From Squalus acanthias (Eukaryota), in the NCBI GenBank assembly GCA_030390025.1, contig CM059432.1:80292001-80356000 (forward strand): DNA of 64,000 nucleotides. The letters run 5' to 3'. Below are positions 21,864 through 27,282 of the stretch, piece by piece. The translations under genes and the position numbers were made by a program. Under the pieces are notes generated by a model that was not told where the DNA came from, ran no database searches, and worked only from the letters and a program-made list of their open reading frames with translations. How positions within the stretch are numbered: position 1 is the stretch's first letter; the number at the start of each line of letters is the position of its first letter.

Positions 21864-22768
21864 TGTAAAATATGGGCTTTTGAGGGTATTTTGAGGGATT
21901 AGGCTTTGCAAGAGTTAAATGACCCTAAGCTTTTCTCTAAAAGCTACCATTCTGCAAAAACGCACTGCCTTGGATTTTCTGCTGACTGAGTAGGAGCAGC
22001 TTCACAAGTGATCTCGTGATTGCAAAAATACACTTATTATTGCTAGAAAAGCGAGGGAAAGAACCGGGAGACTCAGAGCTGTCTACAGTTTATCTCATCT
22101 CTTTTTATGTCTGTGGGAATGCGCAAACTTTTGTGAACCATTGAAATATAATCTTAACTATAATTCCTTTTTACTATTTTTTTATTATTAAGCTTTGCTC
22201 GATTGTAGTTTAATATTACGATTGCTAGTTTATAGTTTTATTAATTTAGTCTTATTTTTCCTTTGTTAGAATTAGGGAAAAGTATGTTAAAATCTAGATT
22301 TTAATTACAGTTAGAACTTGTTGTCCTCAAGGTCCTGGGTTGCGTCATTACCATGGAAACAGAAAACGAGCACAGAAAAAGCTTGTGCTAAGGCTAAAAA
22401 GCAGATAAGGGAGGCCCAAGGCCTGTGCCTGGACACAGAACTTGCTGTGCCTATGATCGGATGGATTTCTCTGTAGTTCTGGTTTTTGGGGTATAGCCTA
22501 GAAGGTTTGGGTCATTCTCAGTGTAGAAGGGCCAGGAAGGGCACAGACCCGGACAGGTGCAGCGCGTATGCGAGTGGGAGGTACGAGGAATCAACCACGT
22601 CTTCTACCCAAGGGACATTAACGGGTAATATAATTCTCAATTGTACTGCTGCTCAAATACTGAGTATATTAAGTCACACTTCTGCTTAAATAAAATCATA
22701 ACTGTCACCAATATGGAGTCAGCTTCGAACCATTAAAGAGACAATCCAAAGGCAAACTTTTTCTTACA
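21864..22768 (+). mobile_element. Solo LTR (905 bp)
   Basis: TGTAA...TTACA termini; GTGG 4-bp TSD at 21860-21863 and 22769-22772; AATAAA near 22689. It splits a Penelope GIY-YIG region. Confidence 0.85.
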
Positions 22769-22950
22769 GTGGGATGGAGAATTAAAGTGACCAGAAGCTC
22801 AGGGTCACACTTGCAGATGGAATGGAGGTGTTCAGCAAAGCGATCACCCAATCTGTGTTTGGTCTCCCTAATGTATAGGAGACCACATTGTGAGCAGTGA
22901 ATACACTAAATTAGATTGGAAGAAGTCCAGGTAAACAGTTGTCTCACATA
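22769..22950 (-). mobile_element. Penelope-like GIY-YIG endonuclease fragment
   Basis: Reverse 'CIHCSQCGLLYIRETKHRLGDRFAEHL'. Confidence 0.75.
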
Positions 22951-23029
22951 CCTTGGACAACCTTCTGAAGGTATTAACCCCCTTCCTGCACTGTGTGGCA
23001 GCTCATGGGGTGGTGGAGGTTGTCTGTTG

Positions 23030-23530
23030 TAGGCTGGCATGTGCTGCTTTATTATCAGAGATTTGAATTGAGATGAACATTGTGCAATCATCAGCAGCCA
23101 GCCCCACTCCTGAATTGAGGGAGGGAAGTTCATTAAGGAAACAGATAAAGATAGCTGGGTCAAGGATGCTTCCCTGAGGAACTCCTGCAGTGATGTCCTG
23201 GGGCTGTGATTACTGGCTTCTGATGACCACAACCATCGTCCTTTGTGTTAAGTATAACTTCAGCCATTGGAGGATATCTCATTGACCCAGGCTCCTTCAT
23301 GCCATACCCAGTGAAGTGCTGCGTTGTTACCAAAGGCAGCTGCTCTCACCACTCTTCTGGCATTCAGCTCTGGTGTCCATGTCTGGGTCAAGGCTGCGAT
23401 AAAGTCTGCAGCCAAGTGATTCTGAAGGAACCTGAACTGAGCAGGTTATTGGTGAGTCACTTGATGGCATTATTGATGGCTCGTTCCATCACTTTACTGA
23501 TGATTGGGAAGATGCTGATTGGGTGGTAAA
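23030..23530 (-). mobile_element. Old second-family LINE RT fragment
   Basis: Reverse CCCCAGGACATCACTGCAGGAGTTCCTCAGGG matches 11346-11378. Confidence 0.65.
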
Positions 23531-23572
23531 CAATTGAGATAGGACAGATAGAAGCAGACTATTTCCAGTGAT

Positions 23573-25540
23573 GTTGTTTTGGTGCGATCAACTATAACTG
23601 TAACTTAACAAAAATACAACAAATGAAACTTAACAAATTAAATTAAAATTTGGTTTCCAGGGGTGATGATGCACTCCAGTCCCTACGGTGCCCACCGGTC
23701 GCGGAAGGCCTCGAGCGTGCCGGCGGACACCGCGTGCTCCATCTCCAGAGCTACCCATGCGCGAACGTGGCCACGGAAGAGAGGCAGGCAGTCGGGCCGA
23801 ACGACCCCCTCGACCGCCCGCTGCCTGGACCAGTTAATGGCCACTTTGGCCAGGCCCAGGAGCAGTCCTACGAGGAGGTCCTCCGATCTGTCCGCTCTCC
23901 TCCACACCGGGTGACCAAAGATCAGGAGCGTGGGACTGAAGTGCAGCCAAAAATCGAGGAGCAGCCCCTTCAAATAGTGGAAGAGGGGCTGCAACCTCTC
24001 ACAATCCACATAAACGTGGAACACGGACTCCTCCAGGCCGCAGAAAAGGCAGGCAGCCTGGGAGTCCGTGAACCTACTTAAAACCTTATTGCACGGGACT
24101 GCTCCGTGCAACACCCTCCAGGCCAAGTCCCCAATAGATAAAGGGAGAACTCCTGCGTAGAGAGCCCTCCATTGGGGACCCCCGCCCATCCGGACGGCAA
24201 GATGGTGAGCCAAGGCGTGTCCAGACGGCAGACGAGGATGGCAAAATGGAAAGTGTACAGGAGCAGCCCGTACAGGAAATCCCTTCGTGCAGAACGAAAA
24301 GGCACGGAGGGCATTTCCACAAGACGGCTCAAGATGTGAGGCGCCGGCTCCCATGAGGGGTTTCGGGGCCGGGCGCCGATGAGGAATTCTGTCCGAACTG
24401 GGGTCAGTTCAAACGGGATCACCCCACGTGCTTGAGCCTCCTCGATACACCTAGTGGAGTCAGGGCCCAGTGCCACTTTCAGCGACGTCGATGGCTTTGG
24501 CCGCAAGCCGGACGTTGGCCCAGGACAGGCGCTACGCCAGCTCCTCCGGCGCCATCCAACCCACTCCTCTGCCATCGAGTAGGTCCCCAATTCTAGTCAC
24601 CTTGCCAGGCACGGCCCTGCCCTCCGCCAGCCACCCGAACCCGCTGTCGTGGAGGTGCGGATTCCTGAGCAGCGGCTCCCGAAGGACAGCCGCCACTCCT
24701 GACAGGGGAGAACTCTGTCTGCAGGCGACCTTGTTCCAGACCCATAGCAGTTCCTGGTAGAAGACAGGCAGCTCCCGCAAGCAGGCCCGGGTACTGCCCA
24801 GTTTCACAAACAGGAGCTGCGTGTCGTAATTGAGGCTGTGCAGCTGGCGGAAGAAATACGTCGCCAGCGCACACCATCGAGGAGGATCCTCGCTGTACAG
24901 GTATCTCTGCAGGGTTCGAAGATGGAAAGTCGCAGCCTGGGTGCGAAGGCACACCAGCGCCTGACCGCCTTCCCTAAGCGGGAGACTCAGAACCGCAGCA
25001 GAGACCCAGTGCTTCCTTTTGTCCCAGAAGAAGTCGATGAACTTCTTTTGTATCTTGGCGACAAACGCAGGGGGAAGGATAAAAGTGACCAACTGGTACC
25101 ACAACATGGTGGCCACCAGTTGATTTATGACCAGCGCTCGACCCCTGTAGGACAGCACTCAGAGCAGTCCTGTCCAGCGTCCTAGGCGAGCGGTGACTTT
25201 GGCCTCCAGCTCTTGCCAGTTCACTGGCCAGGCGTCCTCGGCAGGGCTAAGGTTGACTCCCAAGTAGAGGAGAGGAGTGGTACTCCAGGCAAAAGGCCGG
25301 AGCTCCTCCAGCAGGGAGTCCACCCACCACTGACCCACCAGGAGTCTGGAACATTTCTCCCAGTTGATCTTGGCGAAGGATGCGTCCGAGTAAACCTGCT
25401 GGCACTCGTGTATCCTCCGCAAGTCAACGGGATCCGTGACCATGGGGAGCACGTCATCGGCGTAAGCCGAGAGGACGACCTCCACGCCCGGCCCTTGCAG
25501 AGCCAGTCCTGTCAATCTCTTCTGCAAGAGGTGCAGGAAA
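23573..25540 (-). mobile_element. Tx1-clade (L1 group) LINE, 3' half of ORF2
   Basis: 'LSAYADD', 'YLGV', 'LSYRGRALVINQL', CCHC knuckle 'CLFCGLEESVFHVYVDC', 'FRDRWAP'; T-rich 3' UTR. Confidence 0.9.
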
Positions 25541-25548
25541 TTTTCTTA

Positions 25549-25675
25549 GATACTGAACTTAATGTGGATGCCTGATCAGCATAGTCCGCTGCAGCCCAGA
25601 ACTCCTGACCTCAAGCAATCCTACAGTCTCAGCCTCCGAGCAGCCGGATTACAGGCGCGTGCCACCGCACCTGGC
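25549..25675 (-). pseudogene. RN7SL: 7SL (SRP) RNA 5' portion, retrocopied and fused to Tx1
   Basis: Minus strand reads GCCAGGTGCGGTGGCACGCGCCTGTAATCC...GGAGGCTGAG...TTGAGGTCAGGAGTTCTGGGCTGCAGCGGACTATGCTGATCAGGCATCCACATTAAGTTCAGTATC, colinear with nt 1 to about 130 of vertebrate 7SL. Confidence 0.9.
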
Positions 25676-25990
25676 CTATTTCCAGTGATTAAGAGATCTA
25701 GAACAAGGGGACAATGCTATAAAATTAAATGTAAGAGATTTAGGATCGAGAGCGGGAGAAATGTTTTCACACAGAGGGTTGTGAGGCTATACACTACCAG
25801 GGATAGTGATTGAAACAGATACCATGACAACATTTAAGAATGGGTTGGATTGGTGGTTGAAGAAATAGAAATAAAAGAATTTGGGAACAGAGCGCACAGG
25901 GGATTACAGTTACTGTTCATGTGAAGGGTAAACACCAACATGCACTGGTTGGGCTGAATGGCCTGTTTCCATGTTGTAATATCTATGCAA
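25676..25990 (+). mobile_element. Old CR1 3' end (host of the 7SL-Tx1 insertion; left remnant 23535-23572)
   Basis: 'LFPVIKRSRTRGQCYKI...FTQRVVRL' and 3' UTR GGGCTGAATGGCCTG. Confidence 0.75.
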
Positions 25991-26967
25991 ATTCCTCCTT
26001 TAACACGGTCCATAAAACATACCTCTTTGATCAAGCTTTTCTTCACCTCTCCTAATAGCTCCTTTGGCTCTACATTTTTTGGCTAGACTCTGAAGCACTT
26101 TGAGATTTTTTCTACCTTAAAGGTACTATGTAAATGCAGTAGTAGTAGTTGTTTGAAGCATTGTTTTCGTTTTAGAAAGTTCTGTTCCTGTAGTAAAGCT
26201 ACTTCTGGCATTGAATATCTTTACTACAGAAATATTAGTGTTTTTCCAGCATTTGAAAGCTTGCAAAACTAAAACTTACAAAATTGTCCGACCTAGGGAG
26301 CGTCATATCTCAGTGGCTGTCTGAAGATTAAAGGACCAGCTAGTCAGAATTTGCAGTTAACTAGGTTCGGTTATTTATAAATTAACATGAAACGCCTTAG
26401 GCACTTTTTGCCAGTATTGTGTTCTGTTTTTTTTTCACAAAGATTATCAGTAAGGAATACTACACAGTGGGTGTGTACTAAATTGCATCAATTACATTTT
26501 GCATTTTCACTGGTGTGCCATTTTAGAACCAATTAGATTCTGACTACAACAGACTAATTTACATTCTAAGATTGCCGAGAATGCATGAAAGTATATATAT
26601 GTATAAATGTGCCGTTTAAACTAGGTTGCTACATTGCGCCACTTAGCTCATCACAGAAATATTTCTTAGAAAAACGGAATGGAAATGAAGCAGATAAGTA
26701 AGTACCTTAAAGGGATTTTTTTGTAAGCCTTGTCTGACATCTTGCTTAAATCAAGAACAAAATTGTTGATTTGCAATCTTACCATATTAAATCCTTTGGA
26801 CAATGGCATATGTCTCTTATTCGCGATGTGTCTGTTCATTTTACACAACTAAGTACAATATATAGAATGGCTCCCTGTTCGCACAGGTCCATCTGTAAGT
26901 AACTACATTCAGCGTTCAATATCATAGTGCACTGGTATCCAATAATATACGTTACTTCCCAAGGTTA

Positions 26968-27282
26968 GGCAACACGGTGGCATAGTGGTTAGCACTGTTG
27001 CCTCACAGCGCCAGGGACCCGGGTTCGAATCCGGCCTCGGGTGACTGTCTGTGTGGAGTTTGCACATTCTCCCTGTGTCTGCGTGGGTTTCCTCCGGGTG
27101 CTCCAGTTTCCTCCCACAGTCCAAAGATGTGCGGGTTAGGTTCATTTGGCTATGATAAATTGACCCTTAGTGTTAGGGGGTTAAATACGTGGGGTTACGG
27201 GGATAGGGTGGGATATGTGTCGGTGCAGGCTCGATGGGCCGAAATGGCCTCTATCTGCACTGTGGGGATTCTGTGATTCTGT
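26968..27282 (+). mobile_element. tRNA-derived V-SINE (HE1-like) with CR1-derived tail
   Basis: A box TGGCATAGTGG, B box GGTTCGAATCC, V-domain TGTGTGGAGTTTGCAC...GTGGGTTTCCTCCGGGTGCTCC, tail GGGCCGAAATGGCCT...ATTCTGTGATTCTG. Confidence 0.9.

Follow-up and report, generated by a model that had tools for sequence, protein, structure and literature searches.

A decayed 7SL-Tx1 chimera enclosed by one target site duplication

The genome of the shark Squalus acanthias carries a decayed chimera in which nt 1 to 129 of 7SL RNA are joined to a truncated Tx1 LINE inside one target site duplication (TSD), and we estimate a probability of about 0.88 that it is a one-off product of a single Tx1 insertion. 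The window analyzed here is a 64,000-nt stretch of contig CM059432.1 (positions 80,292,001 to 80,356,000), and coordinates given without a contig are those of the window. Read on the minus strand, the locus runs from an old repeat through ATCACTGGAAATAG, the 7SL head, Tx1 ORF2 and 3′ end, and a second ATCACTGGAAATAG back into the old repeat. The insert itself (23573-25675) consists of 7SL nt 1-129 (25547-25675), six A-rich extra bases (AGAAAA, 25541-25546) that comparison with both parents places in neither the 7SL nor the Tx1 source at that position, and the 3′ 1,968 nt of a Tx1-clade LINE (23573-25540). The LINE part contains the end of ORF2 in a broken frame, with the reverse transcriptase (RT) from just before YADD and the zinc knuckle, followed by a short 3′ UTR and a fixed 3′ end that is not poly(A). 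A single TSD encloses the 7SL part and the LINE part, and the latter is 5′ truncated with an intact 3′ end, as is characteristic of small RNA-LINE chimeric retrocopies.

The TSD (CTATTTCCAGTGAT on the forward strand) is an exact 14-bp repeat at 100% identity. Its 5′ copy (25676-25689, minus strand) is flush with 7SL nt 1, and its 3′ copy (23559-23572, minus strand) is flush with the fixed 3′ end of the Tx1 family. Among 15 direct-repeat families in the surrounding 4.5 kb (22500-27000), it alone reaches at least 14 nt at full identity. These coordinates are those of the original prediction, which also correctly placed the start of the insert at exactly nt 1 of 7SL (25675) and the switch to Tx1 ORF2 just before YADD, continuing to the LINE 3′ end; in all 38 of the Tx1 matches scored, similarity begins at 25540. 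The 7SL run and the stretch that separates it from Tx1 were likewise foreseen, at lengths of about 127 and 8 nt that our comparison corrects to 129 and 6 nt.

The host repeat, which we take to be CR1 or CR1-like, is split by the insert. To the right, a LINE 3′ region (25690-25960, plus strand) is 61-70% identical to the 3′ ends of other repeat copies. To the left, a short remnant of the same repeat (23535-23558, plus strand) continues the match to one such copy for about 20 nt beyond the TSD, a weak signal.

The 7SL head and its source gene

Compared with the Rfam Metazoa_SRP model (RF00017), as the original prediction had proposed, the head matches at 41.9 bits (E 2e-9), which, since only part of the RNA is present, falls short of the gathering score of 70; no match at gathering level occurs anywhere in the window. 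The genome also contains a far closer relative, a complete 7SL gene with a score of 270 bits that is identical to the head at 123 of 129 positions (95%). Complete 7SL genes on contig C10 are of two kinds, namely this single gene (C10:45050284-45050581) and, 38 kb away, a tandem array (C10:45088274-45159586) of 51 units of 1.42 kb that are regularly spaced at 1416-1422 bp and score 240 bits each. The 60 kb beyond the array end hold no further 7SL copy. The two types are 86% identical and differ at 21 of their first 129 positions; the head agrees with the single gene at 20 of these 21 diagnostic sites, the one exception being a CpG transition. By these sites, the source of the head is the single gene beside RPS13.

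Upstream DNA of the single gene, including a CRE-like octamer at -51, is missing from the insert. The exact start at nt 1 without gene flank marks the head as an RNA-derived copy. Five of the six differences from the gene are CpG transitions, a pattern suggesting that the head has since decayed as methylated DNA does. Measured against a 7SL RNA of about 298 nt, most of the S domain is missing from the head, as is the entire 3′ strand of the Alu domain. The predicted fold of the source gene (z -2.0) has nothing special at nt 129.

The single gene lies head to head with a gene carrying a Ribosomal_S13_N exon (RPS13), with the ATG at -180. Zebrafish is described as having a clustered maternal and a single somatic type of SRP RNA (bioRxiv 10.1101/869651), an arrangement echoed here by the 51-copy array and the single gene, in a comparison of the genes alone. 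The existence of two 7SL types, of which the single gene furnished the head, may matter more than the chimera itself.

The Tx1 body and its target site

Domain searches found RVT_1 and zf-RVT in the broken frames of the body, and its intact relatives, about 90% identical to it, encode a 1306-amino-acid ORF2 with Exo_endo_phos, RVT_1 and zf-RVT. The ORF2 of one relative is 61% identical to that of Xenopus Tx1 (YTX2 of Xenopus laevis) over residues 450-950. With an APE endonuclease, an RT and a C-terminal zinc knuckle, and with Xenopus Tx1 as its closest match, the body is assigned by similarity to the Tx1 clade.

A search for the Tx1 3′ end gave 2,803 first-look candidates, and the 3′ end of the body's own subfamily was found at 50 places with at most one mismatch. 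The 29 other Tx1 copies examined are dispersed and mostly short, and share a fixed end without poly(A). At 21 of the 30 subfamily loci fetched, the window copy included (20 of the 29 others), this end is followed by ATC. A TSD could be called in 17 of the 29 other subfamily copies, and in all 17 it adjoins or overlaps the 5′ end of Tx1, with no extra bases. The target of the insert is thus what one expects when Tx1 works on its own RNA; the exception is the 7SL head.

Three further observations concern the Tx1 family at large. Subfamilies with different last bases favor different first target bases, ATC in one (21 of 30) and, judged by eye, mostly AC or ACAC in the others (loci L067-L095, L170-L198). 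A young, intact sister subfamily has copies about 99% identical that share about 700 bp of flank past the 3′ end (loci L160, L164-L168), as would be expected of a target-specific family. Finally, one Tx1 copy (G000:C16:16179455-16182655) has about 18 tandem repeats of its own 45-nt piece before its 5′ truncation point.

Ages of head and body

Relative to the column majorities of its own subfamily, the body has changed at 25 of the 593 sites covered (19 of 513 non-CpG and 6 of 80 CpG), compared with subfamily medians (n = 24) of 3.9% at non-CpG and 10% at CpG sites. In the head, 1 of 107 non-CpG and 5 of 22 CpG sites have changed relative to its gene. By the same-subfamily yardstick, head and body give Fisher p values of 0.23 (non-CpG) and 0.056 (CpG). 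A wider Tx1 yardstick made the body the more diverged at non-CpG sites (1 of 107 versus 106 of 1654, p 0.019); it was set aside because it is biased by the younger sister subfamily that dominates it, and the gap shrank under the same-subfamily yardstick. On these counts, the two ages appear compatible, which is short of proof that they are equal.

How the chimera could have formed

Under the one-off reading, Tx1 ORF2p would have nicked the ATC-starting site observed in the old repeat and primed on the 3′ end of its own RNA, the end still present in the insert. Its RT would then have copied about 1,970 nt and halted inside the RT region, at what is now the truncation point. Six bases would have been gained there, either without a template or from an A-rich tail carried by a 7SL fragment; the RT would then have moved to a 7SL RNA whose 3′ end lay at nt 129 and read it through to nt 1, and second-strand synthesis would have closed the insert with the observed 14-bp duplication. 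Within the one-off reading, we give about two thirds of the weight to such a template jump of the Tx1 RT onto a 7SL fragment, the rest going to prior RNA ligation or repair joining.

Head and LINE lie in the same orientation, and this arrangement of small-RNA piece and LINE is tied to ligation or template switching in one survey (PMC13174262). The RT of R2 is described as requiring untemplated addition for template jumping (PMC8857657), so extra bases at the joint fit a jump. These bases are apparently not the habit of the Tx1 subfamily, since the TSD meets the Tx1 5′ end directly in all of the callable sister copies. Untemplated addition is usually A-rich, and the bases added to the cDNA here would be T-rich, a point against this account. 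Five of the six linker bases also agree with the first six bases of Tx1 when these are inverted, which could reflect snap-back synthesis or chance; we noticed this match after the fact and do not use it as support.

A tentative variant within the one-off reading, to which we attach appreciably less weight than to the jump, is that the 7SL fragment and a broken Tx1 RNA were ligated as RNA and then reverse transcribed in one pass. It accounts equally well for the same orientation and the exact nt-1 start, and a recent preprint names two mechanisms for U6/L1 chimeras, one of which is RNA ligation (bioRxiv 2025.02.02.635956). Against it stand the six extra bases at the joint, which direct ligation would leave only if the fragment carried a tail. 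An RtcB route needs a cyclic-phosphate end, from which a tailed 3′ end differs, and we count this too against ligation. The sequence of the insert by itself does not separate the two routes.

We regard as unlikely a two-step origin at one break, in which a truncated Tx1 cDNA and a separate 7SL cDNA were united by end-joining repair. The extra bases and the near-palindromic AGAAAA/TTTCCT joint do look like repair scars. However, the 7SL part is in sense orientation, complete to nt 1 and flush with the TSD, and second-end priming is reported to yield antisense pieces in the human set (PMC13174262).

Could the insert be transcribed or act as a master?

The sense strand of the insert contains nine runs of 4-5 T, five of which recur in most copies of the family. 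The conserved runs begin at insert nt 1593 (29 of 35 copies), with others at nt 1629 (35 of 39) and 1723 (39 of 44); two earlier runs are private to the window copy (0 of 28 and 0 of 29 family copies). An upstream promoter is reported to be required for 7SL, going by the title of a reference in PMC10498592 (Ullu and Weiner 1985). Because Pol III is reported to terminate at oligo(dT) (PMC10498592) and the body contains such T runs, transcription by Pol III would likely end short of the Tx1 tail.

In human Alu, the 5′ 46 nt are described as binding SRP9/14 (PMC12199147). The head retains these 46 nt, without the 3′ strand of the Alu domain and without the upstream element. It is conceivable, though we think it very improbable, that the insert founded an Alu-like element in a fish lineage, with an SRP9/14 domain and a Tx1 tail, that was transcribed in the germ line and gave rise, in a related species or in alleles that this assembly lacks, to shorter daughters with internal deletions. 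Within the assembly, the insert seems to have decayed neutrally and without daughters.

The junction is unique in the assembly

The original prediction had offered three origins for the insert, namely a one-off template switch, a Tx1 inserted into a 7SL gene and later remobilized, and a multicopy 7SL-headed family. A family would place the same junction between different TSDs across the genome, and a 25-base junction sequence found one match in 3.7 Gb at up to two mismatches (control, 0). This uniqueness favors the first origin, in the sense of a one-off chimera inserted as one unit. A search with head and junction together likewise found the junction spanned by the window insert alone among the 40 scored of 463 candidates, and a search with 7SL nt 72-160 gave four candidates, all scored, of which one has Tx1. 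To count 7SL copies regardless of junction, we used a 26-base core common to both 7SL types at up to three mismatches, which within this assembly reaches copies up to about 12% diverged in the core. It gave 59 matches genome-wide (control, 0), made up of 50 in the array, the single gene and 8 dispersed copies that include the window insert. None of the other seven dispersed copies has Tx1 of this family nearby (8-10 kb fetched for each), and their 7SL breakpoints differ (approximately 5-298, 5-138, 20-178, 21-179, 23-81, 11-115 and 46-218).

A multicopy, nonautonomous 7SL-headed family mobilized by Tx1, the third of these origins, is thus refuted for this assembly by its one junction and by the presence of Tx1 at one of eight dispersed 7SL copies, and we give it almost no credence. 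In its favor, the insert keeps the Tx1 3′ end, and its head keeps the SRP9/14-binding 46 nt that are reported to be needed for Alu mobility in HeLa cells (PMC12199147). It is also true that 7SL SINEs have originated outside Euarchontoglires (PMC7245038, PMC13023118). The head derives from 7SL RNA, as in SINE1 families, but it has decayed at CpG, and the conserved T runs would probably keep a Pol III transcript from reaching the tail. The many dispersed copies of one structure that mark a SINE1 family are replaced here by one copy and eight dispersed 7SL pieces with differing breakpoints. Nor are 7SL 5′ and 3′ parts joined by a central deletion that keeps the Alu domain, a feature described for such families (PMC7245038, PMC13023118), since only nt 1-129 are present. 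Because neither the copy number nor the Alu-domain deletion matches, the window insert is, by its sequence features, not a SINE1 family.

The other dispersed 7SL copies deserve brief description. Candidate TSDs at the seven loci were 9-10 nt and distant, or absent, and were taken as chance. A Pfam search of 85 reading frames near these copies found an RT domain at one locus only, antisense and about 1 kb away, which we judged unrelated. Two old fragments with nearly equal ends (about 20-178 and 21-179) have unrelated flanks (G000:C9:98688208, C9:112302748). An internal fragment of the single-gene type (nt 46-218; G000:C2199, L063:1475-1648) directly follows a repeat tail that is presumably Penelope-like.

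Tx1 is absent from 7SL genes

The second origin supposes a 7SL gene interrupted by Tx1 at nt 129, with later remobilization of the fusion from the Pol III promoter. Tx1-clade families are reported often to target multicopy small-RNA genes (PMC4494074), and the 51-unit 7SL array would suit such targeting. No Tx1 was found, however, in the 120 kb that span all 52 complete genes, the single one and the 51 of the array; the array spacing is regular, and the head is of the single-gene type while the single gene is intact. From the side of Tx1, 7SL was found within 1.5 kb of the anchor in 0 of 57 and 0 of 29 Tx1 loci (four loci common to both sets). Moreover, the 7SL bases past nt 129 do not start with the ATC that the subfamily prefers. 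The fixed site in a small-RNA gene that marks Keno-like Tx1 elements is thus lacking for 7SL, and the body's Tx1 is, on this survey, not a 7SL-targeting Tx1; we consider remobilization of such a fusion highly improbable. An assembly artifact is, on indirect evidence, just as improbable, given that the head carries CpG-type differences from every 7SL gene, which a mis-join would not produce, a TSD matching the subfamily's site preference encloses the insert, and the locus lies inside a 154-Mb scaffold.

Relation to known small RNA-LINE chimeras and 7SL SINEs

The original prediction rightly took small-RNA/L1 chimeras as established, and 7SL/L1 chimeras had in fact already been catalogued in human, at five loci in Table S3 of one study (PMC13174262, Cell Genomics 2026). 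As in the window insert, the 7SL piece of these rare human chimeras lies 5′ of a LINE fragment within one TSD (9-14 bp in human). In the human set, however, the partner is L1, three of the five 7SL pieces are antisense to it and the two sense ones are joined to pieces labeled Alu or FRAM, whereas the window insert has a clean sense head of nt 1-129 and a Tx1 with a fixed, non-poly(A) tail. Chimeras of U6 snRNA with LINEs of the L1, L2 and RTE clades are described from lizard and platypus and attributed to template switching (PMC4476161). They too place a Pol III small RNA 5′ of a truncated LINE 3′ end and extend the phenomenon beyond mammalian L1; as described there, U6 is joined at its natural 3′ end, whereas the 7SL of the window insert breaks off at nt 129 of about 298 and its LINE is Tx1, a clade outside those three. 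The window insert appears to work like the U6/LINE chimeras, with one TSD around both parts, an RNA part free of gene flanks, a 5′-truncated LINE with its 3′ end intact, and a unique junction.

The statement in the original prediction that 7SL SINEs are mainly known from Euarchontoglires needs qualification, for it leaves out hagfish SINE1-1_EBu (2,363 copies, formed by chimera; PMC7245038) and shrew-mole Urop (about 280,000 copies; PMC13023118). Both are headed by 7SL 5′ sequence, as the window insert is, and both lie outside Euarchontoglires. They are, however, short, amplified families that keep or rebuild the Alu domain, whereas the window insert is one 2.1-kb copy without the 3′ strand. 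Crocodilian SINEU and Tx1-Mar are described as carrying small-RNA 5′ pieces on elements moved by Tx1 machinery (PMC4494074), a combination shared with the window insert; they are reported as multicopy families with U1/U2 heads and a Mariner target preference, in contrast to the 7SL head, one copy and 3-base site preference seen here.

Our literature search found no 7SL-Tx1 chimera and no shark case, subscription papers and Repbase Reports lying outside its scope. We regard the insert as a retrotransposition accident of an ordinary sort. Only the pairing is new, and it extends small-RNA/LINE chimeras to 7SL and Tx1. It also illustrates the raw step behind the origin of 7SL SINEs, here without amplification.

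Other small-RNA fusions in this genome

Small-RNA fusions recur in this genome. At G000:C3:184171047-184171333, a full-length, array-like 7SL (147 bits) is followed directly by the 3′ end of an abundant repeat, about 185 nt long; this is likely a second 7SL-LINE chimera by its structure, and no TSD was found at it. The presence in the same genome of a second, full-length 7SL with another LINE tail suggests that the supply of 7SL-LINE fusions is not limiting for the birth of Alu-like families, and it is more likely that the missing central deletion and the internal terminators limit it.

Seven U6 copies lie outside gene clusters, from 48 scored. Two of them join abundant repeat 3′ ends at the U6 3′ end (L153:4428-4700, L154:4503-4950), and one of these two tails matches the end of an RT-coding element. 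We assume that the repeat tails of the U6 fusions and of the C3 7SL fusion are CR1-like. No Tx1 of this family was found at the U6 loci (seven outside clusters; 30 top matches fetched). At G000:C17:68357341-68357568 (minus strand), U6 from about nt 15, a full 5S rRNA and the A-tailed 3′ end of a ferritin mRNA are joined, with a 9-bp flanking repeat. Elsewhere, another repeat contains a U6 copy (G000:C1:125673460-125673566, minus strand) with its own nt 73-106 duplicated in inverted orientation in front of it.
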